Assembly (NCBI RefSeq): GCF_028368995.1
Contig: NZ_JAQNDL010000004.1
Coordinates: 544,001-608,000, forward strand
Direction of reading: 5' to 3'
Origin: Nannocystis bainbridge
Lineage (GTDB): Bacteria; Myxococcota_A; Polyangia; Nannocystales; Nannocystaceae
Length of the DNA: 64,000 nt
Made by a program: the position numbers and the translations under genes. Numbering within the stretch: position 1 is the stretch's first letter; each line of letters starts with the position of its first letter. The notes under the pieces are model-generated. The model saw only the letters and a program-made list of their open reading frames with translations, was not told where the DNA came from and did not search any database. Shown in pieces: positions 1,545 through 63,825 of the stretch.

Positions 1545-1668
1545 GGGTCTTCGGGACATGCTTGAAAGGGCATGTCCTCGAGGACGGCGTGGTGAGCGAT
1601 CGCGCCGTGGAAACGTGAAAACAGTCTGGCCCTCAGGACATGCTCCTTCGGGCATGTCCTGAGGAGCA
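1545..1668. repeat. Two triplets of 14-bp TGTC-N6-GACA-like units; includes a perfect hairpin at 1631-1664
   Basis: Units at 1545/1559/1573 and 1627/1641/1655. CCTCAGGACATGC-8nt-GCATGTCCTGAGG is a perfect inverted repeat between convergent genes. Confidence 0.85.
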
Positions 1669-1675
1669 GGCGCGA

Positions 1676-2299
1676 TCAGGCGGTCGTGATCAGCGACGGC
1701 GGCAGGTGGCCGGTGTCGTTGTAGGTGATCAGCGCCTCGAAGTCTTCCTGGTAGACCCGGAGCTCGGTGATCCCGCAGTGCGAGCAGTCGAACCGGCTCC
1801 ACGCCTCGTAGGGCAGGCGCAGGGTGTGGGCGACGAGGTAGCGGATCAGGTTGCCGTGGGTGAAGATGACCGCGAAATTGGTCTGCTTCGGGGTGCGGAA
1901 GAAGCGGTCGCGGACCTTGTCGACCTGCTTGACGGTCATGGCCCGGTCCTCGGGGCTGGTGAACGGCAGGCCGGGGTGGACGCCGAACTCGGCCACGCGG
2001 TTGGCGTCGACCACCGGCAGGACCTCGTGCAGGTACGGCTTGACCTTGATCCGGTCGATGTGGAGCTCGTGGGCGGCGATCTCGGCGGTCTGCAGGGCGC
2101 GCGGCCAGGGGCTCGAGAACAGGCCCTCGAACTTGCCTTGCGCGGCGTCGAGGATCTGCGCCAGGCGCCGACCGGTGCGCACGGCCTGGCGCCGGCCCAG
2201 CGGGGTGAGGCCCCAGACGGTGTCGCCCTCGTCGCCGATCCGCTCGTAGTGGCCGTGCCGGACGAGGATGACCCGGCTGTGGACGACTTCGAGGCTCAT
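1676..2299 (-). CDS. Histidine phosphatase family protein (PGAM5-like)
   Basis: LVRHG motif, LTPLGRRQA, SSPWPRALQTA, FTHGNLIRY, NDTGHLPP. Confidence 0.88.
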   Translation of the reverse strand: MSLEVVHSRVILVRHGHYERIGDEGDTVWGLTPLGRRQAVRTGRRLAQILDAAQGKFEGLFSSPWPRALQTAEIAAHELHIDRIKVKPYLHEVLPVVDANRVAEFGVHPGLPFTSPEDRAMTVKQVDKVRDRFFRTPKQTNFAVIFTHGNLIRYLVAHTLRLPYEAWSRFDCSHCGITELRVYQEDFEALITYNDTGHLPPSLITTA

Positions 2300-2333
2300 G
2301 CGCGGCGGCGCTTGTAACACGGCGTCGCCGCGC

Positions 2334-2633
2334 TCACAAAGGAGTCACGGCGAGCCGCCGCAGCCGGCGCCACAGGGCCAGGTCGCCGGCGACGAGCCGC
2401 TCCTTGTCGGCCCGCCGGAGGGCCTTGAGCGCGTATTCCAGCTGCCGGGCGTGGCGCGGCAGCTGCTGGCCGCGCTTCCAGGCGACCGCCACCGGCAGCC
2501 GCCCGCGCGTGTACTTGGCGCCCTTGCCGGCGTTGTGCGCGGCGAGGCGGCGGTCCAGGTCGTCGGTGATGCCGGCGTAGAGCGAGCCGTCGGCGCAGCG
2601 GAGGAGGTAGACGATGTAGCGCCGCTCGGCCAC
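2334..2633 (-). CDS. GIY-YIG nuclease family protein (YhbQ/YazA-like)
   Basis: [43 protein letters not shown]; GTG start at 2633. Confidence 0.9.
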
Positions 2634-2689
2634 GGGAGGGCTCCGACGATACACGCGATCGGGCCGGGGCGCGGAAGCGTCACGGGCGC

Positions 2690-4714
2690 TCAGCCGGCGG
2701 CCGCGATCACCTCGAGCAGGCCGGCGCCGTACTTGTCGGCCTTGGCCGGGCCGATCCCGTGGGCGAGCAGCAGCTGGTCGCGGGTGCGCGGGCGCAGCAG
2801 CGCGAGGTCGCGCAGGCTGCGGTCGCTGGCGACCACGTAGGGCGGGACCCCGTCGCGGCTGGCGACCTGCATGCGGTGGGCGCGGAGGCGCTCGAACAGC
2901 GCCAGGGCGGCGGCGTCGAGCACGGCCTCGGGCTCGTGCGTCTTTCTGTCCTTCGGGACATGTCCCAAGGGACCTGCCCCGGGGAGCATGTCCTTTGCGG
3001 CAGGTCGATGGCGCGGCGGCAGCAGCAGGCGGGCCGGCACGGCGCCGCGCATGACCTGGCGGCCGATGTCGGTGAGGACGACGACGGGGCGGTCGTCGCC
3101 GGTGAAGTCGACCCAGCCGGCGACGACGCAGCGGCGCAGCAGGCGGAGCAGCCAGGGGCCGTCGTGATCGCGCAGGGCGCCGAAGGTCGGGGTGTTGACG
3201 AGGCCAGTGCGCTCGAGCCGCTCGTCGGCGGCGCCGCGCAGCAGGCTGACGGCCGCCTGTAGGCCGAAGCGGCGGTGGATCCGGGCGACCGCGCTGAGCG
3301 CCTTGCGCACGATCAGGGTCGTGGCCTCCGGGTCGTCGTCGGCCTCGGCCGAGAGCTGGCGGCACACGTCGCAGCGGGCGCAGCCGCCGAGCGCCTCGCC
3401 CTCGTCGCCGAAGTGGCGGAGGATCGCGTCGTGGCGGCACGAGCCGCCCTCGGCCCAGCGCATCAGCTCGAGGAAGGTGTTCCACTTGTGCTCGACCACC
3501 GCCGGCGCGGGCGGGCTGTCGTCGCCGCCGCCGCGCTCGATCAGCCGGCGCCGCAGCGGCAGGTCGCCCGGGGCGATCAGCAGCAGACCGAGCGCGTCGC
3601 GGCCGTCGCGGCCGGCGCGACCGACCTCCTGGTAGTAGGCCTCGATCGAGCCCGGCGGGGCCAGGTGGATCACCGCCCGCACGTCGCCGCGGTCGATGCC
3701 CATGCCGAAGGCGTTGGTGGCGACGACGATGTCGAGCTCGCCGCGCGAGAAGCGGGCCTGGACCCGATCGCGCTGCGGACCCTCGAGGCCGGCGTGGTAG
3801 GCCTCGGCCCGCCAGCCGCGGGTGACCAGGCGCACCGACTCCTGCTCGGTGACCTTGCGGGTGGGGGCGTAGATGATGGCTGTCCCGTAGGACATGTCCT
3901 CGGCGTCATGTCCCGAAGGACGGGCGCCGGGGGCCCGGCCGAGCGCCGCCTCGAGCGTGTGGTCGATGAGGCGCTCGCGCGACCGGCGGTCCTCCTCCTC
4001 GGCGACGTGCAGGGCCAGGTTGGGGCGGGCGAAGCCGCGGACGATCTGCGGGGTGTCGGCCGGCAGGCCCAGGCGCGACAGGATCTCGTCGCGCACCACC
4101 GGGGTGGCGGTGGCGGTGCAGGCGAGCACGCGCGCGCGCGGCAGGTCGGCCAGGAGCTCGCCGATCTGCAGGTACTCCGGGCGAAAGTCGTGGCCCCACT
4201 CGCTGATGCAGTGGGCCTCGTCGATGGCGATCAGCGGGACGGCGATCCGGCGGCAGATGTCGCGGAAGGCCGGGGCGCCGAGCCGCTCGGGGGCGACGTA
4301 GACGAGCTTGTAGTGGCCACGCGCCATGGCCCCGAGGCGGGCGCTGATCTCGGGCCCGGGCAAGGTGCTGGCGAGGAAGGTGGCCGTGACGCCGCGCGCC
4401 TCGAGGGCCCGCACCTGGTCGGCCATGAGGGCGATCAGCGGCGAGAGGACGATGGTGGTGCCCGGCAAGGCGCTGCCCGGGAGCTGGAAGGTGAGGCTCT
4501 TGCCGCCGCCGGTGGGCGCGACGAGCAGCAGCCGCCGCCGCTGCATGAGGACCTCGATGGCCTCGGCTTGACCTGGCCGAAAGGACTGGTAGCCGAGCCG
4601 CTGCAGGGCGCCCAGGAAATCGGGCCCGTCGCCCGCGCCAGGCTCCTGACGGGGGCCTCCGGGGCCGGCAGGCCGAACCGTCGCGTCGGGCTCGTGGGCG
4701 CCAGGAGAGGTCAC
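2690..4714 (-). CDS. recQ: ATP-dependent DNA helicase RecQ
   Basis: Walker [48 protein letters not shown], Zn site CRH...[10 protein letters not shown] and HRDC domains. Confidence 0.95.
2947..3002. repeat. Four 14-bp units inside recQ (RQC-HRDC linker)
   Basis: TGTCCTTCGGGACA/TGTCCCAAGGGACC/TGCCCCGGGGAGCA/TGTCCTTTGCGGCA. Confidence 0.85.
3881..3922. repeat. Three 14-bp units (42 bp) inside the recQ helicase region
   Basis: TGTCCCGTAGGACA/TGTCCTCGGCGTCA/TGTCCCGAAGGACG; encodes [14 protein letters not shown]. Confidence 0.85.
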
Positions 4715-4764: not shown

Positions 4765-4842
4765 GGCGCGAGCGCGGCGGGGGCCTGGCGCGAGCGCGGC
4801 GGGGACCTGGCGCGAGCGCGGCGGGAGCCTGGCGCGAGCGCG
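4765..4842. repeat. 22-bp tandem repeat, about 3.5 copies, upstream of recQ
   Basis: GGCGCGAGCGCGGCGGGRRCCT at 4765, 4787, 4809 and a partial copy at 4831. Confidence 0.85.
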
Positions 4843-5976: not shown

Positions 5977-6018
5977 TGTCTATTGCGACATGTCTAAAAG
6001 GGCATGGTCATAAGGACA
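5977..6018. repeat. Three 14-bp units, intergenic
   Basis: TGTCTATTGCGACA/TGTCTAAAAGGGCA/TGGTCATAAGGACA. Confidence 0.85.
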
Positions 6019-6147: not shown

Positions 6148-7683
6148 TCACTTGCGGCGGCGGCGACGAAGCAGCGGCAGAAGCCAGGCCAGGGCCGGGC
6201 TGCCGGTGCGGCAGCCGCCGCAGGCGTCGTCGCCGGGCGGGTCGGACTCGCCGGCGGTGTCGGACTCGCCCGGATCGTCGCCGGTGCTCGAATCATCACC
6301 GGTGCTGTCGCCGCTGCTCTCGTCGCCGGTGGTCTCGGGCGCGGGCAGTGGTTCGACGCAGGCGAGCCCGTCGCGGGTGTCCGCGGCGCACAGGTGGGCG
6401 CGGATCGACATGTCCGAGAGGACAGGGTTGACGACGGCCAGCCAGTAGCCGCCGGCGGGCAGCTCGGCGAGGATCCGCGGCTCGGGTTCGGCGCCGTCCC
6501 AGGCGAGCGCCTCCGGCTCGACGGGGCCGTCGGCCGCGCCGCCGGCGACCGCCTGAAGCGTGAACTCGAGGCCGGGCGCGGGCGCGGCGAGGCCGAACCA
6601 CAGCGGGCCGCCGGGGTGGTCGAGGCGGTAGTAGCGGGCGGTCAGCGAGAAGAAGCGGTCGTCGTCGGCGAGCGGGAACACCTCCTGTTCGGCGGCCACG
6701 CCCGCGAGCTCGGCGGCGTACGGGTGGCTGTCGCGGGCGCCGGCGTGCTCGCCGGTGGCGAGGTTCCAGGCGGCGAACTCGAGCCAGGCCGGGCGCAGGT
6801 CGTCGGCGTGCGCCTGCAGCAGCCCGGCGATCGCGGCCGGCAGCTCGGCGGCGCCGCCGATCTGCAGCAGGGCGTCGACGAACTCGGGGCCGCGGCGGGC
6901 GATCAGGAAATCCCACCACAGCCCGGTGCCGTAAGCGAAGCTCGGCACCGGACCGGCGGGGGGCTTGAAGAGGGAGCGGCCGGTGTCGGCGAGGTAAGCA
7001 TCGCAGAAGCGCAGGAAATCGCGCGAGTCGGCGCGATAGGACCGCTCGGCCCACACGGCGGTGCCCTCGGAGAACCACACCGGGAGGTCGACGGCGTACG
7101 CGGCCTGGACGGCGTGGAACAGCTCGTGACTGACGACGGTGTCGACGGCCTCCGCGAGGTCGGCGTAGCCGTAGCCGGCGAAATCGTTCTCGAGCACGAG
7201 GTGGCCGGCGCAGGCGTCGGGGTCGCAAGCGTCGTGGCCGAAGTGGCCGTCGGCGGAGCCGCCGAAATCGACGAGGTAGATGTCGAGTGCCTCGCTGCCG
7301 CCGAGCAGGCCGAGGTCGTGCTCGGCCTCGCTGCGCGGGGGCCGGAGGTCAAAGGCGTCGCGGTAGAGCGCGAGCACGGCGGCGGCGGTGTCGGCGACGC
7401 GGACGACGTAGTCGGGCACGCCGTCGCCGTCGAGGTCGGCGAGCGGGACGACGCTGGGGCCGTCGGCGCTGTAGTGGACGCGCAGGCCGCCGCCCGGGTG
7501 ATCGAAAAAGACGAGGCTGTCCTTTGGGTCATACGGCCACAGGCCGCCCTCGGTCGGCCGCTCGGCGCGCGCGAGGCCCGGGACGAGCAGGGCGGCGAGC
7601 AGGGCGGCGAAGCACGCGGGGACCGGCGAGCGAGTGGGACGCGCGCGGCGCTTCGGCTCGACGGCGGAGTGATTTCCACGCAC
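6148..7683 (-). CDS. MXAN_6640-type secreted zinc metalloprotease with MYXO-CTERM-like tail (start uncertain)
   Basis: Signal peptide ...LARA; DLDGDGVPD; VSHELFHAVQ (HExxH) followed by WFSEGTAVW; acidic Ser/Thr linker, GGC, hydrophobic stretch and RRRRRK. Confidence 0.8.
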   Translation of the reverse strand: MRGNHSAVEPKRRARPTRSPVPACFAALLAALLVPGLARAERPTEGGLWPYDPKDSLVFFDHPGGGLRVHYSADGPSVVPLADLDGDGVPDYVVRVADTAAAVLALYRDAFDLRPPRSEAEHDLGLLGGSEALDIYLVDFGGSADGHFGHDACDPDACAGHLVLENDFAGYGYADLAEAVDTVVSHELFHAVQAAYAVDLPVWFSEGTAVWAERSYRADSRDFLRFCDAYLADTGRSLFKPPAGPVPSFAYGTGLWWDFLIARRGPEFVDALLQIGGAAELPAAIAGLLQAHADDLRPAWLEFAAWNLATGEHAGARDSHPYAAELAGVAAEQEVFPLADDDRFFSLTARYYRLDHPGGPLWFGLAAPAPGLEFTLQAVAGGAADGPVEPEALAWDGAEPEPRILAELPAGGYWLAVVNPVLSDMSIRAHLCAADTRDGLACVEPLPAPETTGDESSGDSTGDDSSTGDDPGESDTAGESDPPGDDACGGCRTGSPALAWLLPLLRRRRRK

Positions 7684-9748: not shown

Positions 9749-10005
9749 GCGACCTCCGATTGGGGGGCGGCGAAGCGAGGGGGATCGACCTCGGCCCCGG
9801 CGCGCCCGGGCGCATGGTCTTCGGGACAGGTCGAGCCGGGCCGCGCGTCGTGCGAGCCCGGGACCGGGGCCGGGCGGGGCGTGCGCATCAGGATGGCCTT
9901 CGGGACAGGTGGGGGCGCGACCGGGGGCGATCGCCTGGGTTCGACCCTTGGTTGCGATCGTTCTTCATAAGTATTCAGAACCAAAGATCTTACGGCGCTG
10001 CTCAT
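9745..10005 (-). CDS. Putative 86-aa bridging ORF between hmuU and hmuV
   Basis: ATG overlaps the hmuU stop (ATGA) and its TGA overlaps the hmuV GTG (GTGA). Low complexity; two motif units. Confidence 0.35.
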   Translation of the reverse strand: MSSAVRSLVLNTYEERSQPRVEPRRSPPVAPPPVPKAILMRTPRPAPVPGSHDARPGSTCPEDHAPGRAGAEVDPPRFAAPQSEVA

Positions 10006-11054
10006 GCGAACTCCGAGGCGCGCACGCGGGCGAGCAGGGCGAGGAACACCGGGGCGCCGAGCAGCGAGGTCAGGATGCCGACGGGCAGCTCGGCGGGGGC
10101 GAGCATGGTGCGGGCGGCGGCGTCGGCGAACAGCAGCAGGGCGGCGCCGCCGAGCGCGGCCGCGGGGATGAGGACGCGATGGCGCGGACCGACGAGCCCG
10201 CGCAGCAGGTGCGGGACGACCAGACCGACGAAGCCGATGATGCCGGTGAAGGCGACGCACACGCCGACGGCCAGGGCGACCTCGGTGATCACGCGCCGGC
10301 GTAGGCGCTCGACGTCGACGCCGAGGTGGAACGCCTCGGCCTCGCCGAGCAAGAGGGCGTCGAGCTCACGCGCGCGGCGCCACAAGAGGACGCCGGACAG
10401 GCCGACGAGGGGCACGAGGATGAGGCCGACGCTGTGGGTGATGCCGCCGAGCCCGCCGAGCAGCCACAGGCTGAGGTCGCGCAGCTGGCGGTCGTCGGCG
10501 AGGTAGCCGAGCAGGCCGATCGCGGCGCTGGCCAGGGCGCTGACGGCGATGCCGGCGAGCAGCAGGCCGACCACCGAGGTCTGGCCGCGGACCCGGGCGA
10601 GGGCGTGCACGATCCACGTGGCAACGAGCCCGCCGAAAAAGGCGAAGACCGGCTGGGTGAGGCCGCCGGGGAGCACGGGCAAGGCGCGGCCGAGCACGAT
10701 GGCGAGGCCGGCCCCGAGCGCGGCGCCGCTGCTGACGCCGACGAGGCTCGGGTCGGCCAGCGGGTTGCGGAACAGGCCCTGCATGGCGCAGCCGGACACC
10801 GCCAGGCCGGCGCCGACGACCATGGCGCCGAGGGTCCGCGGCAGGCGCAGGGCGGTGAGGATGTAGCGCTCGCTCGGCTCGCAGGTCGGGTCGGGCGAGA
10901 CGAGGCAGCCGACCGCGTGCGCGAGGTCGAGCGGGGCGGCGCCGACGGCCAGCTGCAGCAGCGCGCCGAGGACGACGAGGACGGCGAGGCCCACGAGGAC
11001 CGGGCGCACGCGCCGGGCTGTCCCGGCGGACAGGCTCGCCCGGGCGGCGGTCAC
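10002..11054 (-). CDS. hmuU: Heme ABC transporter permease (FecCD family)
   Basis: LRLPRTLG, MQGLFRNPLADPSLVGVSSGA, GEAEAFHLG, IGFVGLVVPH, ELPVGILTSLLGAP. Confidence 0.92.
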   Translation of the reverse strand: MTAARASLSAGTARRVRPVLVGLAVLVVLGALLQLAVGAAPLDLAHAVGCLVSPDPTCEPSERYILTALRLPRTLGAMVVGAGLAVSGCAMQGLFRNPLADPSLVGVSSGAALGAGLAIVLGRALPVLPGGLTQPVFAFFGGLVATWIVHALARVRGQTSVVGLLLAGIAVSALASAAIGLLGYLADDRQLRDLSLWLLGGLGGITHSVGLILVPLVGLSGVLLWRRARELDALLLGEAEAFHLGVDVERLRRRVITEVALAVGVCVAFTGIIGFVGLVVPHLLRGLVGPRHRVLIPAAALGGAALLLFADAAARTMLAPAELPVGILTSLLGAPVFLALLARVRASEFA

Positions 11055-13345: not shown

Positions 13346-13359
13346 GGCGCAAGCGCACC

Positions 13360-13524
13360 GGATGTCTGAAGGGACATGGCCGCGAGGTCATGTCCCTTTT
13401 GCGTGCATGGTTCACCGAGCCCGAGTCGGATGTCTGAAGGGACATGGCCGCGAGGTCATGTCCCTTCGTGCATGTGCTTCGCATTGGATGTCCGAAGAGA
13501 CATGGCCGCGAGGTCATGTCCCTT
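13360..13524. repeat. Three copies of a 39-bp palindromic element built from 14-bp units
   Basis: GGATGTCYGAAGRGACATGGCCGCGAGGTCATGTCCCTT at 13360, 13428 and 13486; spacers of 29 and 19 bp. Confidence 0.9.
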
Positions 13525-13541
13525 CGTGCGCCCGGCTCGGG

Positions 13542-17456: not shown

Positions 17457-19292
17457 ATGCGAGCGCTTAAATTGAAGTGTGCGTGGAGTCGGGCCCTGAC
17501 CCTTGGCATCGGGCTCGGCGCGGGCTGGACCCTGGCGATGCCGCAGACGGCCGAGGCCTGCGGCGGCGTGTTCTGCGACGGCGGGCTGCCGAACTCGATG
17601 CCCGTCAACCAGGACGGCGAGAACGTGCTGTTCGTGCTCGACCAGAACGAGGTCGAGGTCCACATCCAGATCAGCATCGATCCCAACACCAACGCGCAGA
17701 AGTTCGCGTGGCTGATCCCGATCGCCCAGATCCCCGAGTTCGAGGTCGGCTCGCAGCCCCTGTTCGACGCGCTGCTGAACTCGTCGGTGCCGACCTACCA
17801 GGTCCAGCAGACCTTCGAGGTCTGCGGCGAGAGCGGCCTCTCCGGCGGGTTCACGACCGGCGGCAGCGGCGACCCGGGCCTCAGCAGCGACAGCAACGGG
17901 ACCGGCACCGACGGCAACGAGAGCGCCGGCGAGGACCCGGTGCTGTTCAAGACCACCGCCGGCGCGTTCGAGATCGTGGTCCTGCAGGACAAGCAGATCG
18001 GGCCGATCAAGGACTGGCTGATCGACAACGACTACCAGTGGATCGACGGCTCGGAGACGGTGCTGCAGCAGTACCTCGACGAGGGCCAGGTGATCGTCGC
18101 GCTCAAGCTGGCGGCCGGGTCCGACGGCGGTGACGTGCACCCGATCGTGCTGCGCTACCCGTCGAACGAGAACTGCTTCCCGCTGCGGCTGACGCGGTTC
18201 GCGTCGATCGAGAACATGGACATCCGTGTGTTCGTGCTCGGCGACAAGCGGGCGGCGCCGACCAACTACCGCCACGTCCTCGTCAACCCGCTGAAGATCG
18301 ACTGGCTGTCGTTCGCGACCAACTACAAGGAGGTCATCACCAAGGCGGTCGACGACCTCGAGGCCGACGGGCTGGCGTTCGTGACCGAGTTCGCCGGGGC
18401 GTCGAGCGTGGTCCAGCCGTTCGCGTTCAACTTCTACAGCACGTCGTGGAACGAGGCGGCGTTCATCGGCATCCCGCCCGAGCAGGTGGTCCAGGTGCTG
18501 AACGAGCAGGGGCTGACGCAGTGCTTCGACCCCGAGTTCTGCTTCTACAACCACCCGCTGGTCGAGAGCCTGCTGAACGATTTCCTGCCGGTGCCCGACG
18601 GCCTGACGGCGGAGGAGTTCTACTGGAACCTGCCCGCCTACGTCGACCAGATCGACGCGATGGCGTGGGGCGACGGCAGCGCGTTCGCGCAGGCGCTCGA
18701 CAGCCGGATCATCGCGCCGGGCGAGCACGCGCAGGAGCTGATCGACACGTATCCGTACCTGACGCGCATGTACACGGTGATCTCGCCCAACGAGATGATC
18801 GCGGACCCGATCTTCCACATCAACCCGGACTTGCCCGACGTGGCGAGCTTCCGCTCGGCGACCGAGTACAACCTGTGCGACGGCAACAGCGTGGTGACGC
18901 TGCCCGACGAGCGCGAGATCTTCGTGCCGAACGGCGGGCCGTGGCCGGAGTTCATCGGCGAGATGTGGTGGGCCGAGGAGGTCCAGCAGGTCGCCCTCAA
19001 GGGCAAGCCGATGCACCTCGTCAACAACACCGCGGCGATCAACAAGAAGATCGAGGAGTGGAACCTGGCCCACGGCTGGCCGCGCTTCCCCGACGCTCCG
19101 ACGACCAGCGCCAGCGACACGGACACCGACAGCTCGGGCTCGGGCTCGAGCGGCGGGCCCGACTCTGCCACCGGCGGGGGACAGAACGACAGCAGCGGCT
19201 GCGGCTGCCGCAGCGACGGGACCCCGGGCGCCGGGATGCTGGCGCTCGTGGGGCTGGGGCTGCTGGCGCAGCGGCGCCGGCGGCGGGCGTGA
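17457..19292 (+). CDS. DUF2330 domain protein with MYXO-CTERM
   Basis: AEACGGVFC, PVNQDGENVLF, FAWLIPI, FPLRLT, YPYLTRMYT; tail GCGC, hydrophobic stretch, RRRRRA. Confidence 0.88.
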   Translation: MRALKLKCAWSRALTLGIGLGAGWTLAMPQTAEACGGVFCDGGLPNSMPVNQDGENVLFVLDQNEVEVHIQISIDPNTNAQKFAWLIPIAQIPEFEVGSQPLFDALLNSSVPTYQVQQTFEVCGESGLSGGFTTGGSGDPGLSSDSNGTGTDGNESAGEDPVLFKTTAGAFEIVVLQDKQIGPIKDWLIDNDYQWIDGSETVLQQYLDEGQVIVALKLAAGSDGGDVHPIVLRYPSNENCFPLRLTRFASIENMDIRVFVLGDKRAAPTNYRHVLVNPLKIDWLSFATNYKEVITKAVDDLEADGLAFVTEFAGASSVVQPFAFNFYSTSWNEAAFIGIPPEQVVQVLNEQGLTQCFDPEFCFYNHPLVESLLNDFLPVPDGLTAEEFYWNLPAYVDQIDAMAWGDGSAFAQALDSRIIAPGEHAQELIDTYPYLTRMYTVISPNEMIADPIFHINPDLPDVASFRSATEYNLCDGNSVVTLPDEREIFVPNGGPWPEFIGEMWWAEEVQQVALKGKPMHLVNNTAAINKKIEEWNLAHGWPRFPDAPTTSASDTDTDSSGSGSSGGPDSATGGGQNDSSGCGCRSDGTPGAGMLALVGLGLLAQRRRRRA

Positions 19293-19309
19293 GGCTGTTT
19301 TCTCGCGCC

Positions 19310-19393
19310 TGACCTCGAGGGCATGTCCGTAAGGGCATGCTCTCGAGGCGCTGTTCGTAAGGACATGTCCTCGGCGACATGTCCGTGCGGTCA
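19310..19393. repeat. Six 14-bp units between convergent genes
   Basis: TG starts at 19310, 19324, 19338, 19352, 19366 and 19380. Confidence 0.9.
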
Positions 19394-19396
19394 GCC

Positions 19397-19816
19397 TCAG
19401 AAATCGATGACGACGGAGCGGGCCGAGACCTTGGCCGGGCCGTGGAACACCGCCTCGACGTTGTTGCCGGCGGGGTCGAGCAGGAACGCGGCGTAGTAGC
19501 CGGGGTGATACGGGCGCTCGCCGGGGGCCCCGTTGTCGCGGCCGCCCGCGGCCAGGCCGGCGGTGTGGAAGCGTTCGACGGCGCCACGATCGGGGGCCTG
19601 GAAGGCCAGGTGGACCCGCCCGGTGGTCTGACCCTGGGCCGCCTTGCTCTCGGCGGTGGAGATGAAGAGCTCGTCGTACCACACGTGGTCGTCGGCCTCG
19701 CCCCCGCGCGGGACGCCGAGAGCGCCGAGCACCGCGGCGTAGAAGCGCTTGGCCGCGGGGAGGTCGGTGACGACGAGCTGGATGTGATCGATGAGGCGAC
19801 CGCGGTGGAGCTGCAT
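19397..19816 (-). CDS. VOC/glyoxalase family protein
   Basis: IDHIQLVV, RVHLAFQA, GGRDNGAPGERPYHPGYYAAFLLDPAGNNVEAV. Confidence 0.92.
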   Translation of the reverse strand: MQLHRGRLIDHIQLVVTDLPAAKRFYAAVLGALGVPRGGEADDHVWYDELFISTAESKAAQGQTTGRVHLAFQAPDRGAVERFHTAGLAAGGRDNGAPGERPYHPGYYAAFLLDPAGNNVEAVFHGPAKVSARSVVIDF

Positions 19817-22881: not shown

Positions 22882-22951
22882 TGTCTGCGAGAGCATGTCT
22901 CCGAGGGCATGTCTCGAAGAGCATGTCGTGAAGGACATGGCCTCGAGGTCT
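22882..22951. repeat. Five 14-bp units between convergent genes
   Basis: TG starts at 22882, 22896, 22910, 22924 and 22938. Confidence 0.9.
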
Positions 22952-38290: not shown

Positions 38291-38315
38291 GCGCGGATGC
38301 GTGAAGGAGGGGCCG

Positions 38316-46405: not shown

Positions 46406-46515
46406 GCCTCGTTGACCTGTCTTTTCAGGCAGGTAGGATCTTCTCTCCCGCTGGCTGCGGTGCCGAAACCGCGCCGTGAGGCCGACGGGCGGCGTGCTAT
46501 CGTCGAGCTCGGCTC

Positions 46516-49385: not shown

Positions 49386-49442
49386 GCGGTGCTCCTGGCG
49401 GCGAGGCGGTGGTCTGGTCTTCGGGACAGGTGCGGCGCGCGC

Positions 49443-50396
49443 TCACGGGCCGGCGGGCTCGGGGTCGCGCGGCACCCCCTGGCGCTCGGGCAGGCCGAGG
49501 GCGAGGTTCAGGTTCTGCAGGGCCTGCGAGGCGGCGCCCTTGAGCAGGTTGTCGAGGGTGACGACGACGACGGCGTGGCGGTCGTCGACGTGGAGGCCGC
49601 CGATGGTGACGTCGTGGCGGCCGGCGACGTCGCGGACCTCGGGGATGTCGCTCGTGACGCGCACGAGCGGCTCGTCGGCGTAGACGCTGCGGTAGCGCTC
49701 GAGCAGCTCGGCGCGCTCGAGCGAACGCGCGAGCGGGAGGGTGATCGTCAGGGTGATGCCGCGGAAGAACGGGGCGACGTGAGGGACGAAGCGGACCGCG
49801 TGGCCGAGGTGATGGCTGGCCTCGCGCTCGTGCAGGTGGCCGGTGAGGGCGTAGGGCATGAGGTTGTCGCGCAGGCGCTCGGGGTCGTTGCGCGGCGAGG
49901 GGGTGGTGCCGGCGCCGCTGTAGCCGGACACGCCGAAGGCCTGCGGCGGGCCGGCGAGCAGCTCCAGCAGCGGAGCGACGCCGAGCTGGATGCCGGTGGC
50001 GTAGCAGCCGGGGTTGGCGATCCGGCGGGCGCCGCGGATCTGGGCCCGGTGGCGCTCGGGCAGGCCGTAGGCCCAGGCGGGGTCGAAGCGGTAGTCGGCC
50101 GAGAGGTCGACGAGCACGGGGCCGCGCGCGTCCAGGGCGTCGGCGTAGGCGGCGGCGAGGCCGTTCGGCAGGGCGAGCACGACGGCGTCGACGGGCCAGG
50201 AGGCGACTGTCTCGGGGGACATGTCCTCGAGGACAATGTCGGCGGGGGCGTCGGTGAGGTGGGCCCGCAGCGGGTCGCCGACGCCCTGGCGCGAGGCGGC
50301 GCGGGTCAGGCGGAGGTCGTCGTGGCCGGCGAGCAGGCGCGCGAGCTCGCCGCCGACGTGGCCGCGCGCGCCGACGAGGCCGAGGGTGAAGCTCAT
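49443..50396 (-). CDS. argC: N-acetyl-gamma-glutamyl-phosphate reductase
   Basis: GARGHVG, DLSADYR, IANPGCYAT, DNLLKGAA. Confidence 0.95.
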   Translation of the reverse strand: MSFTLGLVGARGHVGGELARLLAGHDDLRLTRAASRQGVGDPLRAHLTDAPADIVLEDMSPETVASWPVDAVVLALPNGLAAAYADALDARGPVLVDLSADYRFDPAWAYGLPERHRAQIRGARRIANPGCYATGIQLGVAPLLELLAGPPQAFGVSGYSGAGTTPSPRNDPERLRDNLMPYALTGHLHEREASHHLGHAVRFVPHVAPFFRGITLTITLPLARSLERAELLERYRSVYADEPLVRVTSDIPEVRDVAGRHDVTIGGLHVDDRHAVVVVTLDNLLKGAASQALQNLNLALGLPERQGVPRDPEPAGP

Positions 50397-50503
50397 GGCC
50401 GGCCTCCGTGAACAGGGTCGAAAGGACATGTCCACAGGAGCATGTCGTCATGGACATGCCCGCTGGGGCATGTCTGAAGGGGCATGGCGACGGGCGGGGT
50501 CAC
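50393..50503 (-). CDS. Putative 36-aa bridging ORF between argB and argC, largely made of five 14-bp units (50415-50484)
   Basis: GTG overlaps the argB stop and its TGA overlaps the argC ATG. Confidence 0.35.
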   Translation of the reverse strand: MTPPVAMPLQTCPSGHVHDDMLLWTCPFDPVHGGRP

Positions 50504-51841: not shown

Positions 51842-52996
51842 TCAGGACAGGATCGCGCGGTAGCGGGTGGCCGCCTCGACGAGGTCGGCCAGGGGGACGT
51901 ACTCGCCCGCGGTGTGGGCCTGCTCGATCGAACCTGGCCCATAGACCAGGACGTCGCAGCCGGCGGCCGAGAACAGGGCGGCCTCGGTCCAGAAATCGAC
52001 GGGGTCGCCGGGCGGGAGGCCGAGGCGGGCGGCCAGGGCGGACGCGGCCTGGCGGGCCGCCGTCAAGCGCGCGGGGCCGCCGGCGGGCAGCGGCGGGGCG
52101 AGGAAGCCGGGCGTGAAGCGGACGCGCGCGGGGTCGGGCGCGAGCGCGAACAGCTCGGCGAGGGCGAGCTCGGGCGGGAGCTCGGGCGGCGGCCGCACGC
52201 CGAAGCGCACGGTGGCGGCGCTGGCGATCATGTTGGCCTTGAGGCCGCCCTCGACGGCGCCGAGGTTGAGCCGCAGACCCCGGAGCGAGCCGGCCGCGCC
52301 GGCGGTCTCGCTGGCGCCCGCGCGGGCGAGGGCGAGGCTGGCCCAACGGACGGCCTCGTGGACGGCGCTGTCGCGCAGGGCCCGGGCGGCGGAGGCGTGG
52401 CCGCCGATGCCGGAGAACACGGCGGTGGCGGTGCCGATCCCGCGGTGCTCGAGCACCGCGCGGCAACGGGTGGGCTCGGCGACGACGACGCTGCGGAAGG
52501 TCGGGTGCGAAGCTGTCCCGGAGGACATGTCGGATGTCCGCGGGGACAGGTCGGAGCGGGTCAGGAATTCGCGGATGCAGCGGCTGCTGCCGGCCTCCTC
52601 GTCGGACGAGAACAGCACGGCGGCGGGGCCGGTGGTGGCCTCGAGCACGCTCAGGAGGCAGGCAGCGGCGCCCTTGATGTCGCAGGCGCCGAGGCCGACG
52701 GCGAGGTCGCCCTCGATGCGCAGGCGGTGGGGGTCGGCGGTCCAGCCGGGGTCGGCGGGCACGGTGTCGACGTGGACGTTGAACAGCACCTGCGGGGCGC
52801 CGCGCACGGCCAGCAGGTAGACGCAGCCGTCGCCGAGGTCGACGGTGTCGCAGGTGAGACCTGACCCCTGGAGCATGTCCCGCAGGTACGCGAACAGCCC
52901 GGCGTCGCCGGCGATCGCCCGCGGCGGGTTGCGGGTGTCGAAGGCGACCAGGCGCGTCAGGTGTTCGAGGGTGCGCCGGAGCGTGGCTTCGGTCAT
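51842..52996 (-). CDS. argE: Acetylornithine/acetylcitrulline deacetylase (M20)
   Basis: FDTRNPPR, NVHVDTVP, GACDIKG, DEEAG, AEPT, FWTEA, QAHTAGE; ATGA overlap with argG. Confidence 0.93.
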   Translation of the reverse strand: MTEATLRRTLEHLTRLVAFDTRNPPRAIAGDAGLFAYLRDMLQGSGLTCDTVDLGDGCVYLLAVRGAPQVLFNVHVDTVPADPGWTADPHRLRIEGDLAVGLGACDIKGAAACLLSVLEATTGPAAVLFSSDEEAGSSRCIREFLTRSDLSPRTSDMSSGTASHPTFRSVVVAEPTRCRAVLEHRGIGTATAVFSGIGGHASAARALRDSAVHEAVRWASLALARAGASETAGAAGSLRGLRLNLGAVEGGLKANMIASAATVRFGVRPPPELPPELALAELFALAPDPARVRFTPGFLAPPLPAGGPARLTAARQAASALAARLGLPPGDPVDFWTEAALFSAAGCDVLVYGPGSIEQAHTAGEYVPLADLVEAATRYRAILS

Positions 52997-56667: not shown

Positions 56668-56742
56668 GATGGCGGACGCTACCTCCGCTCAGGAATGCGC
56701 GCAAGCGCGCGCGCCGGCGAGCAGGTGCACGGGCGTGAGCGA

Positions 56743-56806
56743 GACGGCGACTCGGGCGTGAGCGGGGGCGCGGGCGGGAGCGTGACGGCGACTCGGGCGT
56801 GAGCGG
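56743..56806. repeat. 23-bp direct repeat, two copies, in the divergent intergenic region
   Basis: GACGGCGACTCGGGCGTGAGCGG at 56743 and 56784. Confidence 0.8.
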
Positions 56807-57062
56807 AGTCTGGCGCGGGTCCGGGCGGCGGTGGTTCTCCCGCGTGCCCGAGGAGGCGTCGCCTGGGGTCGACGCGCGGCAGGTCGAGCGGGCCGGGCGG
56901 TGGGTGACCTGCTGGCGGCGGCGCGACCCTGGGGGCGCGAGGCGGTAGCTGTCTCTTGGGCCAGGTCGGCGGAGCGGCCGCCTCGGCGAGTCGTCGGCGC
57001 GGGGTTCGCGGGCGCTTCCCCTCCGGGCGGGAACGCGCTAGGGAGCGTGCCCGCGGAGGCCC

Positions 57063-58289
57063 ATGGCAGCAGCTTTGTCGAGGATCGACCCACCGAGCAC
57101 GCCGGGCCTGTTGGCGCTGGCCGACGGGACCCTGTTTCGCGGCCGCGCGCTCGGAGCCCACGGGCGCACGTGCGGCGAAGTCGTGTTCAACACGGCGATG
57201 ACCGGATACCAGGAGGTCGTCTCCGACCCGAGCTATCACCAGCAGATCGTGACGCTGACGGCGGCGCACGTCGGGGTGGTCGGGGTCAACGCGGACGACG
57301 AGGAAGGCCGCGGGCCGCAGGTCGCCGGGCTGGTGGTCCGCGACGCGCCGCGCATGTTCGCGTCGTGGCGCGGGCGCGAGAGCCTGGGGGCGTATCTGCA
57401 GCGCGCGGGGGTGGTGGCGGTGGCGGACATCGACACGCGCCGGCTGACGCACCTGCTGCGCGAGCGCGGGGCGATGGCGGGCTGCGTGGCGGCCGGCGAG
57501 GCGGCCCGCGACGAGGCGGGCTGCGTGGCGGCGGCGCGGGCGTTCCCGGGGCTGCAAGGCGCGGCGCTGGCGGAGGCGGTCAGCGTGCCGGAGCCGGCCG
57601 GGTGGACGGCGGGCTCGGTCCGCTGGCTCGAAGGACATGTTCGTGAGGGCATGTCCGATGCGGCAGGTCCGGAGGGGCATGTTCGTGAGGGCATGTCCCC
57701 GGGGGCAGCCGGGCACGTGGTGGCGTTCGACTTCGGGATCAAGCGCAACATCCTGCGGCTGCTGGTCGACCGCGGGCTGCGGGTGACGGTGGTGCCGGCG
57801 GCGACGACGGCGAGCCAGGCGCTGGCGCTGCGGCCGGACGGGATCTTCCTGTCGAACGGGCCGGGCGATCCGGAGCCGCTGCAGGCCCAGCAGGCGGCGA
57901 TCCGCGAGCTGGTGGCGGCGGGGCTGCCGGTGTTCGGGATCTGCCTCGGGCACCAGCTGCTGTGCCTGGCGCTGGGGGCCCGCACGTTCAAGATGAAGTT
58001 CGGCCACCACGGGGCCAACCACCCGGTGCGCGAGCTGGCGAGCGGGCGGGTGCTGATCACGAGCCAGAACCACGGGTTCGCGGCCGACCCGGCGACGCTG
58101 CCGGCGGCGCTGCGGGCGACGCATGTGTCGCTGTTCGACGGGTCGCTGCAAGGGGTGGAGCTGGCGGATCGGCCAGTGTTCTCGTTCCAGGGCCACCCGG
58201 AGGCGTCGCCGGGGCCGCGCGAGCTGGCGGGGCTGTTCGACAGGTTCGCCCGCGAGGTGAGCGCGGGCCGGACCACGAAGGGGGTGTGA
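57063..58289 (+). CDS. carA: Carbamoyl-phosphate synthase small subunit
   Basis: [40 protein letters not shown]. Confidence 0.96.
57624..57707. repeat. Six 14-bp units (84 bp, 28 codons) inside carA
   Basis: Units at 57624, 57638, 57652, 57666, 57680 and 57694; peptide EGHVREGMS repeated at a 42-bp period. Confidence 0.92.
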
Positions 58290-58290
58290 C

Positions 58291-61440
<3,150 letters not shown>

Positions 61441-61480
61441 GCCCGGCGCGCCGCGGTCGTCAGGCCGCGGCGCGAAGGGC

Positions 61481-61632
61481 TGGTCGAGCGGGCAGGTGAC
61501 TGACCGATCGGGCAGGTTCGGCTGTCCGAAGGGGCAGGTGATCCCGCTGGCCGAGCGGGCAGGTGATGCTGGCCGATCGGGCGGGTGAATCGGTGTCCGG
61601 CGTGACGGGTTGTGAGGCTGTCCGAATGGACA
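61481..61632. repeat. Seven spaced 14-bp units (20-25 bp apart) downstream of carB
   Basis: Units at 61481, 61501, 61523, 61548, 61570, 61594 and 61619; six are followed by GGT. Confidence 0.85.
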
Positions 61633-61790
61633 TGTTGTGACTGGCTGACGATCGACGGATGTCGCCGCTCCGCGGCGTCGACGGCGAGCGTTGATGGCTG
61701 GGTGGGCCTGGCTGAAGGGGTTCTGGGCGGGGTGGCGCCGGTTTTGGCGGCAATGTGTATTTTCGCGCGGGGCTCTGGTACGTCCGGGCC

Positions 61791-62600
61791 ATGCAGGAGA
61801 GCCGAGGGTCCCAGAGCGTCGATCCCGAGGAGTTGCGCGCGGCGCTGGGCGAGCCGGGGCGGCTGGGGCTGTACCTGTCGCGCGGGGTCGGGCTCGAGTC
61901 GGAGCGCGGCGAGGGGCAGCCGGAGTTCGTGCGGGTGGCGGTGTTGACGAGCGTGTCACCGCCGGCGCTGGAGGCGAAGCGCATGGCGTGGCGAGCGGCG
62001 GTGGCGGGGCTCGGGGTCGAGTCGCTGCCGGCGATCGCGGGGGTCGAGCTGGTGGCGGCGCGGGCGGGCTCGGCGTGGAGCTGGGTGGGGCCGGAGACGC
62101 GGGCGGCGGTGCTGCGGCTCGCGGTGAGGTCGCTGCTGGCGGCGGAGCCGGAGGTGGCGGTGTTTCACGTCACCGACGAGTTCGGCGGGGGGATGCTGCC
62201 GCGGCTGCAGTCGGGGCGGACGGCCGGAGAGCCGCGCCTGGACGCGCGGCTGCTCGAGCACGTGGTGTTCGCGGCAGTGACATACCGGCTGATGGTCGCG
62301 TCGGGCGAGGCGGTGGTGGTGACGCCGGGCGACGACGAGACATGGTCTTCGAGACAGGTGTTTCCGGAGCACGCGGCGGTGTGGCGGCGAGGGTTGATGG
62401 CGGCGCCGCACGAGGCGCTGGCAGGGCTCGACCTGGCAGCGCTGGCGGAGGCGTTGGTGTGGGCGACGACGACGCGCCGCGGTCGGGCGACGGTGGCGGC
62501 GGGGCCCGTGGCGATCGCTACGGCGGTGGCCGAGGCGGAGGGGCAGCTGCGAGCCCGCTGGACCGACCTGCTGCGCGAGCGCGCGGGCGGGGGCAACTGA
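61791..62600 (+). CDS. Hypothetical protein
   Basis: GC3-biased ORF; no family recognised. Confidence 0.65.
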   Translation: MQESRGSQSVDPEELRAALGEPGRLGLYLSRGVGLESERGEGQPEFVRVAVLTSVSPPALEAKRMAWRAAVAGLGVESLPAIAGVELVAARAGSAWSWVGPETRAAVLRLAVRSLLAAEPEVAVFHVTDEFGGGMLPRLQSGRTAGEPRLDARLLEHVVFAAVTYRLMVASGEAVVVTPGDDETWSSRQVFPEHAAVWRRGLMAAPHEALAGLDLAALAEALVWATTTRRGRATVAAGPVAIATAVAEAEGQLRARWTDLLRERAGGGN

Positions 62601-62740
62601 GGCGCGCGGCGAGAGGGTGCGGGAGAGATCGATGGCGGCGCGGCGGCGGCGATGCGGTGTGACAGCGGTGCTCGCAAGCTCCGGCAAATTCGCGCTGTGA
62701 CCGCCGCTGGACGGGGCCGGATCCCGCGAGTAGCCTGAAG

Positions 62741-63499
62741 ATGATGGATGCGCGACTCGGGCAGGGCTTCGGATGGGCGGTGGCGTGTCCGGCGACGGCC
62801 GAGGAGGCCGCTGCGCGCCATGTGGAGGGGCTCTGGGCGTCGTTCTTCCCGCCGGCCGCGGGCTACGCGGTGACACGATCGGAGGTGGTGTCGGTGCCCG
62901 AGCCGGCGCCGTCGCGCGCGCGCGCGCAGCAGCCGGGGATGCGGCTGCTGGTGCGACGCGGTGATTTCTGCGGCGAGGTGGAGGTGGCGGCGACGACGGG
63001 GCCGCGTCGCTCGCGGCTGTGGCTGCGTGGGTACGCGGGCTCGCAGCGGCTGGCGGCGGTCGAGCTGCGAGCGGCCCGCGCGACCGACCGCCTGCGCCTG
63101 GCGGGCTCGCTGGCGGGGGCGTCGGCCCTGCTGGTGCTGTGCGTGGAGCTGATGACGCACCCGCCCGGGTTCACGGTCGACATGATGTTCTTCCTCGGCG
63201 GGCTGCTGGTGGCGGTGATCATGGTGGTGGGGCTGGCGATCGGAGCGAACGTCGGCTCGTGGTTCGGCGAGCGCCAGGCGGTGACGGGCTGGGTCCGGGC
63301 GCTGGCGCTGGTCGAACGCGACGCGGCCCTGCGCGAGGACCTGCGCCGCTGGCGTTCGCTGGTGAAGAACCTGGCCCACTACCGCGACGCGCTGGCGGGT
63401 TCGAGCCGCCGCCAGCCGTTCCGCGCGCTCAGCCCGGGGGCGGAAGAGGACGAGGCGGAGCTGGCCGAAGAGACAGGGGCGGCGCGGGCGGCCGGTTGA
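62741..63499 (+). CDS. Hypothetical membrane protein (two TM helices)
   Basis: Hydrophobic segments LAGASALLVLCV and MFFLGGLLVAVIMVVGLAIG. Confidence 0.7.
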   Translation: MMDARLGQGFGWAVACPATAEEAAARHVEGLWASFFPPAAGYAVTRSEVVSVPEPAPSRARAQQPGMRLLVRRGDFCGEVEVAATTGPRRSRLWLRGYAGSQRLAAVELRAARATDRLRLAGSLAGASALLVLCVELMTHPPGFTVDMMFFLGGLLVAVIMVVGLAIGANVGSWFGERQAVTGWVRALALVERDAALREDLRRWRSLVKNLAHYRDALAGSSRRQPFRALSPGAEEDEAELAEETGAARAAG

Positions 63500-63727
63500 G
63501 GCTGCGTCGGTTCGTTGCTGAAGTCGCGCCGACCGAGCGTGCGCCATGAGCCGGTGGGCGAAGGTCGAGGTGAGCGCGGTGTGAGGCCATCGAGCTGGCG
63601 GAGGCTGCGTCAGTGGGGGCCGGGCGAGGCGCCATGGGCGGATGGGGTGACAGACGACGGAAGCACGCGGGAGTGCTCGGCGGCTGGCGAAAGCTTCAGG
63701 CAGATGCGGAAGCTCGTCGGCCCGAGA

Positions 63728-63825
63728 TGGCTGCAAAAGAATGTCTATAGGGACATGTCGTCAGAGACATGTCTCTAAAATAATGTCGTTATGGACATGT
63801 CAATATGGACATGTCCTTCGGGGAC
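63728..63825. repeat. Seven 14-bp units, the longest array in the window
   Basis: TG starts at 63728, 63742, 63756, 63770, 63784, 63798 and 63812. Confidence 0.92.

Follow-up and report, generated by a model that had tools for sequence, protein, structure and literature searches.

A Gapped Palindrome, TGTC-N6-GACA, Iterated Thousands of Times and Concentrated at Gene Ends in Nannocystis

A stretch of 64,000 nucleotides from Nannocystis bainbridge (contig NZ_JAQNDL010000004.1, positions 544,001 to 608,000; G000:C4:544001-608000 in our numbering), hereafter termed the window, carries the bipartite word TGTC-N6-GACA at dozens of places. Analysis of the whole assembly (11.05 Mb, 71.5% GC, five contigs) revealed that this word forms the core of a gapped palindrome that is specific to the lineage, recurs thousands of times and is maintained by selection or by drive. 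Its units gather directly behind stop codons, join into arrays with a step of 14 bp, and are constrained between species even at silent positions inside genes. It is tentatively proposed, at a probability that we place a little short of even, that a symmetric protein with sequence-specific affinity for double-stranded DNA recognizes the word and acts at gene ends; both the nature of the reader, a protein on the duplex, and its mode of action are inferred from the findings described below.

Abundance and Phyletic Spread

In the window, 34 exact copies of TGTC-N6-GACA were counted, compared with a mean of 0.58 (standard deviation 0.78, maximum 3) in 100 dinucleotide-preserving shuffles. The 107 units with at most one core mismatch collapse into 63 loci when units no more than 100 bp apart are merged, which matches the 50-60 loci counted by eye in the initial annotation of this DNA, whose example strings were all recovered at their positions (46415, 23412, 9815/42312/49415, 20796 and 44168). 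The relaxed form TG[TG][CT]-Nk-[GA][GA]CA follows the same course, with 82 copies in the window at N6 and 19, 13, 22 and 11 at N4, N5, N7 and N8, respectively. Throughout the genome, the gap of six bases yields 3663 copies, while each of the gaps N0-N5 and N7-N15 yields 29-155, an excess of about 40-fold. Copies with one mismatch number 8008 at N6 versus 1421-3428 at N4, N5, N7 and N8, from which a family of about 9000 members is deduced, and the genomic density amounts to about 0.3 exact and 0.9 near-exact copies per kb.

Predicted coding sequences (CDSs) harbor 1309 exact units, about 14 times the 94.6 +/- 5.5 (maximum 103) obtained in ten within-gene synonymous-codon shuffles, and the same shuffle gave 42 versus 16.5 at N5 and 105 versus 78.8 at N7. 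The two comparisons by which the annotation had suggested that its word be judged, namely against the N5 and N7 gaps and against a codon-preserving shuffle, were thus both carried out and both came out in favor of the word. Its view of a genome-wide signal rather than an ordinary regulon is likewise sustained by thousands of copies in coding and non-coding DNA, beside genes of all kinds and on all five contigs.

Among the named records returned for a protein of the window, the nearest belongs to a Nannocystis sp. genome, at 91% identity. The search was extended to 41 genomes with the reversed pattern as the control. The N. bainbridge genome itself contains 3663 copies (control 25), and ten other members of the genus contain 240-3957 each (controls 6-48), the lower figures coming from fragmented assemblies. 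Two sister genera are intermediate (623 versus a control of 98, and 422 versus 18), and the other 28 genomes, drawn from the family and class, hold 16-141 copies versus controls of 1-54, the rest of the family staying near background. The form found in arrays, GGACATGTCC-N4-GGACA, occurs 99 times in the distant congener G009 and at most once in each of four genomes from other genera. At high abundance the word is confined to one genus, and it is graded in the sister genera.

Architecture of the Unit and Its Arrays

The position matrix of the 3663 exact sites gives the consensus R-C-(A/C)-TGTC-(C/T)-Y-N-N-R-(G/A)-GACA-(T/G)-G-Y, that is RCMTGTCCY-NN-RGGACAKGY. The 14-bp core recognized earlier is confirmed, and the full unit proves to be longer than those 14 bp. 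Base preference weakens with distance from the dyad, the centers of the TGTC and GACA half-sites are 10 bp apart, and the central two bases are nearly free, as 854 distinct N6 sequences were recorded among the exact units, the commonest of them 107 times. The half-site TGTCC/GGACA is present 23769 times where an order-3 Markov model predicts 14333, and the 9789 copies lying inside units account for roughly the entire surplus; since TGTCC outside the units stays at background, the pair rather than the half-site is the unit.

Units often abut head-to-tail, which renders ACATGT the most over-represented hexamer of the genome (8468 versus 5262 expected), and GACATGTC is found in 2237 copies for the same reason. 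The distances between successive CATG words rise in spikes at 14 (3736), 28 (2073), 42 (1586), 56 (751) and 70 bp (383) over a background of about 100-300. Among the exact units, 2106 are isolated, mostly with the flanks CC/CA...GG/TG, 1255 have one neighbor at 14 bp and 302 have two, so that about 43% (1557/3663) possess a neighbor exactly 14 bp away. Chaining of units with at most two mismatches, seeded on units with at most one, resulted in 682 arrays of two units, 370 of three, 146 of four, 124 of five, 65 of six, 16 of seven and 5 of eight, besides a single-unit class of 7164 that contains chance matches. Intergenic arrays favor odd sizes (251 of three units, 95 of four, 84 of five and 43 of six), and Tandem Repeats Finder often assigns the arrays a period of 28 bp; the two observations together suggest growth by steps of two units.

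Placement Relative to Genes

Genes were called by our own codon-usage model, which returned 8029 genes (82-85% coding per contig) and is crude, being sometimes wrong in strand or start; genes cited by name were checked with Pfam, and all other gene coordinates derive from this caller. On this map, 2281 of the exact units lie wholly between genes, 46 cross a gene boundary and 1336 fall within predicted CDSs. The density reaches 3.03 units per kb in convergent gaps, 1.14-1.26 in co-directional gaps and 0.45 in divergent gaps, compared with about 0.14 in CDSs (1309 in 9.23 Mb), which makes intergenic DNA nine times denser in units than CDSs. At least one unit (with at most one mismatch) occupies 64% of the convergent gaps (840/1315) and 27-36% of the gaps of the other classes.

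Within the gaps, the units mostly lie 0-40 bp after stop codons. When co-directional gaps are divided into tenths, the count declines about tenfold along the gap, with 333-392 units per tenth near the stop codon and 33 in the tenth next to the start codon; the profile is flat in convergent gaps, and the units of divergent gaps sit mid-gap. Only 18 of the 487 intergenic arrays of at least three units were located in divergent gaps. The initial annotation had described the placement as regardless of gene function, and genes of any kind are indeed involved; position, however, matters, given the strong bias toward the first tens of bases after stop codons. Besides this gene-end placement, the annotation had overlooked the arrays with a 14-bp step, those that run in frame through protein linkers and the hairpin alternative discussed below.

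On the scale of the chromosome, the density ranges from 4 to 60 sites per full 100-kb bin on the five contigs, mostly 20-50, and no pattern relating to origin and terminus or to macrodomains was seen in the 100-kb bins of all five contigs. A role in segregation or occlusion, which had been put forward for the word, is therefore unsupported. The matS, Noc, SlmA and parS sites number in the tens and are confined to, or excluded from, one region of the chromosome, and membership among such macrodomain or occlusion sites was rejected because the word shows no regional confinement. Unit density dips in stretches of lower GC; two adjacent bins at G000:C1:1100000-1300000, with a GC content of 69% and a GC skew near zero, hold only 4 units each and may represent acquired DNA or giant biosynthetic genes.

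Conservation between Species

The window was aligned with the syntenic DNA of four congeners, which are about 90% identical to it in genes. An exact counterpart in at least one relative was found for 11 of the 12 exact units in CDSs and for 11 of the 22 intergenic ones. At orthologous intergenic sites, such as 19366, 24828 and 36008, the arms are kept and the N6 is almost wholly different, as is illustrated by the gaps CTCGGC, CTTCAC, CTTCAC, GGTCAA and CTTGGC of site 19366 in five genomes.

A larger test drew on 476 kb of the relative G005, 298 kb of which aligned to contig C4, and thus covers one relative and one contig with our own gene calls. In 35 in-CDS units, the third codon position had changed at 1 of 101 places in the core versus 115 of 629 in the flanks (Fisher p = 2e-7), and at 10 of 70 places in the gap. 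A at the third position of core codons was kept in 23 of 24 cases (baseline 0.42) and T in 15 of 15 (baseline 0.45), amounting to 38 of 39 A/T-ending core codons versus a baseline of about 43%, and lone TGTC/GACA half-sites in CDSs had an identity of 0.868 (n = 826). The 27 intergenic units in aligned blocks displayed a core identity of 86%, compared with 60% for the central four bases (p = 4e-7) and 73% for the flanks (p = 3e-5). These sites were picked as exact in G000, a selection that does not inflate identity to the relative. As judged from the alignments, the word is under constraint at the level of sequence, and constraint of this kind implies that something reads the word.

Units inside Genes

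Units inside CDSs are distributed evenly along genes. Of the 1146 units located 90 nt or more from a gene end, 630 have strongly coding-like flanks on both sides, compared with 81% of random CDS positions, and the number of true in-CDS units is estimated at about 700-800. Array sizes that are multiples of three make up 29 of the 38 arrays in CDSs versus 294 of the 487 intergenic ones; a multiples-of-three rule for coding arrays is no more than suggestive at p = 0.057. The following genes of the window carry more than one unit in a row or side by side:

2947-3005: array of 4-5 units, exact at 2947, in the RecQ-like gene 2690-4714 (minus strand), between the RQC and HRDC domains
50208-50235: tandem pair of exact units in the ArgC-like CDS 49443-50396 (minus strand), encoding ..VLEDMSPET..
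52514-52555: two exact units 21 bp apart in a predicted M20-peptidase CDS, with extra copies at a spacing of about 27 bp in relatives
57624-57707: six units spanning 84 bp (28 codons), read in frame within the linker between the domains of CarA, as indicated by period, alignment and Pfam

The RQC and HRDC domains of the RecQ-like protein span residues 466-566 and 604-670, and the array corresponds to about residues 570-589 in the linker; its 14-bp period extends over 2955-2993, and in G005, G007 and G001 the arms are kept and the gaps differ. The array of carA comprises six units in all five genomes of a five-way alignment. Relative to G009 (a more distant congener), G013 (a sister genus) and ten other aligned genomes, the six large-genome Nannocystis have about 18-20 additional residues in the CarA linker, which is an in-frame expansion restricted to one clade.

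The ArgC-like pair is of a different kind. Its second unit is kept in all five aligned relatives and the first in four of five, G003 having one core change, and the segment shows no indel relative to 15 homologues (one Nannocystis record and 14 from outside the genus). Outside the genus the segment is variable, and the DNA word, including the rare ACA codon, is found only in Nannocystis sequences; this pair thus arose by substitutions. The earlier suggestion that the word might be the footprint of a site-generating enzyme finds no support in a pair produced by substitution, without an indel, in a variable protein segment, and it is further disfavored by the persistence of sites with kept arms at orthologous places across species.

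Species-specific tandem duplications of blocks containing units were also noted, with a 37-bp spacing at 49406 in G007 only and a spacing of about 27 bp at 52510-52535 in G001, G005, G007 and G010, which indicates that local copy number is dynamic even though the positions are old.

Duplex DNA Site or Hairpin

The preferred reading, a protein site on duplex DNA, has to be weighed above all against a hairpin in RNA or single-stranded DNA, which would function as a bidirectional terminator or 3'-end stabilizer with its stem fixed by a sequence-specific hairpin-binding factor, resembling the repetitive extragenic palindromic (REP) elements without their RAYT transposase. We regard this as somewhat unlikely, although much of the material accords with it. 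Not only do the units stand just past stop codons, occupy most convergent gaps and nearly avoid divergent gaps as arrays, but they also fold well: single units with flanks gave -7.2 to -11.4 kcal/mol and arrays -33.7 to -51.8 kcal/mol in RNA folding, with z scores of -3.8 to -7.6 for the arrays and of -1.9 to -7.6 over units and arrays together.

Pairing, on the other hand, is not selected beyond base identity. No compensatory covariation of the arms was found in 566 two-unit arrays or at mirror positions: compensatory TGCC..GGCA occurs 36 times versus 50 expected, and 25 versus 50 across the junction, while the mutual information of the mirror positions 3/12, 5/10 and 6/9 does not exceed 0.025 bits, the exception being 0/15, which separates array from isolated units. 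In the flanks of the 2106 isolated units, pairs are at or below chance (at positions -1/16, for example, 765 Watson-Crick pairs versus 857 expected). The half-sites vary independently.

The strand was examined in co-directional gaps, which were oriented by their flanking genes so that the transcribed strand could be compared. At positions 5/10, T.G was encountered 143 times and C.A 152 times, loop words and their reverse complements occur at similar frequencies, and no excess of stable tetraloops was observed on the transcribed strand (TTCG 50 versus CGAA 61, GAAG 37 versus CTTC 44). Among the one-mismatch variants of the core, the wobble type is favored about 1.4-fold over the mismatch type on the transcribed strand (205 versus 142; 110 versus 75), as a selected hairpin would predict; a control variant unable to form the pair on either strand has a similar bias (218 versus 169), and a transcription-linked mutation bias is therefore an adequate explanation.

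An intrinsic, Rho-independent terminator was rejected, as a hairpin is possible but the stem sequence is fixed, covariation is absent and the all-site matrix shows no T-run behind the unit, T staying at or below 0.28 at positions 19-34 apart from the contribution of the next unit. A search of the curated RNA families of Rfam 15 at the gathering threshold gave no match in the window. A terminator role would, moreover, leave the constraint on silent positions of in-CDS units unexplained, and neither model alone explains that constraint unless a sequence-specific reader exists. Collectively, the independent arms, the chance-level flank pairs, the half-site at background, the weak strand bias and the 10-bp spacing are better fitted by a symmetric dimer on duplex DNA than by selection for a hairpin.

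The dimeric protein postulated in the initial annotation accordingly gains from the symmetric geometry, the preference that fades away from the dyad, the independent halves and the constraint. The best guess for the reader would be an abundant dimeric protein of the helix-turn-helix type, which would place one monomer on each half-site, the half-sites being one helical turn apart, and would bind sites singly or as cooperative arrays with a step of 14 bp. The bound protein may act on gene ends through insulation, topology or nucleoid organization, akin to the REP elements and bacterial interspersed mosaic elements (BIMEs) of enterobacteria, and its sites would have been cleared from the regions of promoters and allowed to persist where coding sequence is permissive.

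Several points weigh against a protein site on duplex DNA. The placement right after stop codons, the stable folding of units and arrays and the preference for odd array sizes all fit a hairpin equally well, and wobble variants are somewhat favored on the transcribed strand. Generic hairpins are commoner in convergent gaps that lack a unit, since perfect hairpins of 7 bp or more with unrelated sequence were detected in 129 of 348 such gaps versus 192 of 749 with a unit (odds ratio 1.7, p = 1.5e-4), as if hairpins of other sequence could partly substitute for missing units; divergent gaps show no difference of this kind. A tightly bound array of six units would be awkward for transcription of the essential carA, whereas ribosomes could mask hairpins inside CDSs, which would explain why the arrays of carA and recQ are tolerated. 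Clearly coding flanks on both sides characterize only 630 of the 1146 sites counted as in-CDS, and gene coordinates come from a crude caller. No binding protein was found among the neighbors of promoter-side arrays, which were judged by eye only, with no Pfam or phyletic-profile search. Finally, uptake bias, biased repair or another molecular drive could account for the conservation in place of an advantage to the cell.

Comparison with Known Systems

The REP elements and BIMEs of enterobacteria and pseudomonads are short palindromes in hundreds to thousands of copies, which are mostly extragenic, stand after stop codons or between convergent genes, are rare in promoter gaps and form arrays; binding of host proteins (gyrase, IHF) and stabilization of 3' ends are attributed to them. 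The Nannocystis word shares with them the post-stop and convergent placement, the arrays and the rarity in promoter gaps. It differs in its much shorter unit with a core of 14 bp, the absence of a GTAG-type head, the free gap between fixed arms, the strict 14-bp head-to-tail step, the lack of a RAYT and the many copies inside genes with constraint at silent sites. In lying largely outside genes, behind 3' ends and in convergent gaps, the word is thus REP-like, yet 20-35% of the exact units reside in CDSs. A RAYT/Y1 transposase (PF01797) gave no match in the N. bainbridge genome, which is 90.5% complete, and the same search was positive in 6 of 14 control genomes. Membership in the REP/REPIN-RAYT class was rejected, given the missing PF01797 and the lack of shared gap families among 854 N6 sequences that differ even at orthologous sites.

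For the same reasons, a decaying and now inert miniature mobile element spread by a transposase, of the REP/REPIN or miniature inverted-repeat transposable element (MITE) type, is very improbable. The extragenic bias, the local copy-number differences near 49406 in G007 and at 52510-52535 in several relatives, the in-frame expansion of carA in one clade and the tandem duplication of 28- and 42-bp blocks would suit such an origin. Besides the absent transposase, near-random gaps between exact arms are the reverse of copy and decay, the arms are better conserved than the flanks at orthologous sites, and in-CDS units arose by substitution and are constrained at silent positions. The palindromic elements of Rickettsia are mobile, measure 100-150 bp and are inserted in frame into genes at surface or linker segments; the in-frame palindromes in the carA and recQ linkers are reminiscent of them, but here the additions are multiples of 14 bp (6 x 14 = 84 bp) or have spacings of 21 or 27 bp, and single in-CDS units originate by substitution.

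Regulatory operators offer geometric likeness. The LexA box of the E. coli type, CTGT-N8-ACAG, and the PadR operator, ATGT-N8-ACAT, are operators of dimeric helix-turn-helix regulators with TGT-N8-ACA geometry. The isolated form CCTGTCC-N4-GGACAGG of the Nannocystis unit contains the LexA-like motif and the array form the PadR-like one, with half-sites one helical turn apart in each case; unlike these operators, which are found at tens of promoter sites and define regulons, the word has thousands of sites and avoids promoters. Operators of the CRP/FNR type (MrpC-like) have the spacing TGTC-N8-GACA, and this candidate was rejected with 29 copies at N8 versus 3663 at N6 in the genome. A self-regulated binder encoded beside promoter-side arrays was sought at the 18 divergent-gap arrays of at least three units and rejected, the small flanking genes encoding no obvious DNA-binding protein as judged by eye.

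A further alternative is molecular drive, in which a DNA-uptake-type signal with a symmetric receptor, or a HIP1-like word linked to methylation or repair, would accumulate wherever it is tolerated; we consider this quite unlikely. The DNA uptake sequence (DUS) of Neisseria and the uptake signal sequence (USS) of Pasteurellaceae are single asymmetric words of 9-12 bases, which also occur as inverted pairs at terminators. The Nannocystis word resembles them in its frequency of about one copy per kb, its sharing throughout the genus and its presence in permissive parts of proteins, and differs in that a lone half-site is at background, only the pair being enriched, and in its arrays of up to eight units. 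Membership among DUS/USS was rejected, as half-sites outside the paired units stay at the Markov expectation.

HIP1, GCGATCGC, is described in the excerpts of two papers (PMC5861425, PMC4390886) as a cyanobacterial palindrome that is 15- to 300-fold over-represented, an ungapped 8-mer tied to two methyltransferases whose function is unresolved. As far as those excerpts go, both words are lineage-wide palindromes, over-represented in CDSs and intergenic DNA and conserved beyond neutral expectation, features that were all recovered here. Unlike the ungapped HIP1, the Nannocystis word is bipartite with a free gap of 6 bp, forms arrays with a 14-bp step, is nine times denser between genes than within them and is positioned at gene ends.

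These parallels, together with the density of exact and near-exact copies, the copies in CDSs, variable protein segments and linkers, the conservation above neutral expectation, the genus-wide sharing and the sparseness in the two lower-GC stretches of C1 (4 per 100 kb, 1.1-1.3 Mb), speak for drive. The background level of the half-site sits poorly with an uptake word, which is a single word in DUS/USS, the conserved array size of carA (six units in five of five genomes) would be unexpected from uptake alone, and the avoidance of DNA next to start codons exceeds mere tolerance.

A methylation-linked variant of drive could draw on a type I hsdM-hsdS pair at L162:3036-7003 (G000:C1:2005035-2009002), whose specificity domain has matches in all 11 Nannocystis genomes searched. 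However, the two target-recognition halves of the conserved HsdS look dissimilar, as read by eye from the translation without aligning the halves, and an asymmetric site is therefore predicted; type I restriction-modification is disfavored as the reader on this ground, a symmetric site not being expected. The stability of the pair across the 11 genomes is unusual for restriction-modification. No HsdR was recognized among the scanned neighbors of the pair on C1, and no recognizable HsdM lies adjacent to a second HsdS locus (L163).

Among myxobacteria, CdbA of Myxococcus xanthus provides a precedent. The excerpts of PMC7156744 report 569 peaks, 47% of the top 100 being intergenic, with little effect on transcription, and a motif that is a GC-rich direct repeat with a 4-bp separation. 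CdbA is thus an abundant protein occupying hundreds of sites inside genes and enriched between them, as is envisaged here for the reader of the Nannocystis word. It differs in recognizing a direct repeat instead of a palindrome, for which it was rejected as the reader, and a placement at gene ends is not described for it in the excerpts of PMC7156744. No description of the word was found in the literature on Nannocystis and other myxobacteria, subscription journals being mostly outside the coverage of the search.

Sites of the Window

Apart from the multi-unit genes listed above, the window contains the following units and arrays, with relatives counted as those having an exact counterpart unless stated otherwise:

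3881-3894: exact unit in the RecQ-like CDS; one of four relatives
5977-5990: exact unit, intergenic
6411-6424: exact unit in a CDS; identical in four of four relatives
11019-11032: exact unit near the start of the gene 10002-11054 (minus strand); two of four relatives
13355-13530: repeat of about 60 bp in three copies, each made of three units of which the central one is degenerate; exact at 13363, 13431 and 13489
19314-19386: array of about five units, exact at 19366, between convergent genes; arms retained in four of four relatives, with different gaps; RNA fold -51.8 kcal/mol, z -7.6
20796-20809: exact unit in a flavin-monooxygenase-like CDS; three of four relatives
22882-22939: array of about four units, exact at 22924, between convergent genes
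23412-23430: isolated degenerate unit, ACCTGTCC-TTTC-AGGCAGG
24828-24841: exact unit between co-directional genes; three of four relatives, with different gaps
26029-26042: exact unit, intergenic; hairpin -11.4 kcal/mol
32145-32214: cluster of four units, exact at 32159 and 32201, between convergent genes
33886-33913: two exact units in tandem, intergenic
36001-36029: two-unit array, exact at 36008, intergenic; three of four relatives, with different gaps
38344-38357: exact unit between convergent genes, with a degenerate repeat of 14-bp period just upstream (38310-38339)
39121-39134: exact unit in a serine-carboxypeptidase-like CDS; identical in four of four relatives
42312-42413: degenerate isolated unit at 42312 and two exact tandem units at 42386-42413, between co-directional genes
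44168-44181: exact unit in an MlaD-domain CDS; identical in all five aligned relatives
46415-46434: degenerate unit standing alone, ACCTGTCT-TTTC-AGGCAGGT, directly behind a stop codon; hairpin -10.9 kcal/mol
50423-50470: array of 3-4 units, exact at 50443, between co-directional genes
60575-60588: exact unit in the CarB CDS; one of four relatives
61619-61632: exact unit, intergenic; two of four relatives
63741-63815: array of 5-6 units, exact at 63742, 63756, 63784 and 63798, between convergent genes; RNA fold -33.7 kcal/mol, z -6.6

The gap CTCGCG of the unit at 32201-32214 is the exact reverse complement of the orthologous gap CGCGAG in G005 and G007, and the center looks as if it had been flipped between its inverted arms. 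In or beside the array orthologous to about 19290-19400 of the window, between convergent genes, G010 alone carries an insertion of about 1.7 kb (L104:17900-19001 into L105:1-660), which encodes a protein of 419 aa resembling, by eye, an IS110-family transposase; no copy of the insertion was found by blastn in the N. bainbridge genome. Elements of the IS110/IS1111 group target REP-like palindromes. Three GC-rich tandem repeats of the window are unrelated to the palindrome, namely a 22-bp repeat at 4765-4842 (3.5 copies, 94% matches), a 41-bp repeat at 56719-56819 (2.1 copies) and a 22-bp repeat at 61479-61588 (5 copies).

Significance

REP, HIP1, DUS, Chi and matS belong to the small set of sequence features by which whole bacterial chromosomes are organized. 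A more far-reaching conjecture, which we deem unlikely as it stands, would be that Nannocystis ends most of its transcription units with a palindromic gene-end word read by a dedicated dimeric protein, either on the duplex or on the extruded or transcribed hairpin. Such a protein-dependent bidirectional terminator or insulator code would replace the U-tract terminator in a genome of 72% GC, and the same reader would keep several hundred sites inside genes under selection.

The word is unusually tractable, as it is bipartite, restricted to N6 with its large excess over other gaps and found in a culturable genus, and its graded abundance in sister genera suits phyletic profiling. It explains in-frame low-complexity inserts in housekeeping proteins such as CarA and RecQ, and it will affect the annotation, assembly and heterologous expression of the natural-product genes of Nannocystis. 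If the reader is indeed a DNA-binding protein at gene ends, the word would constitute a new form of chromosome or transcription-unit punctuation in high-GC bacteria.

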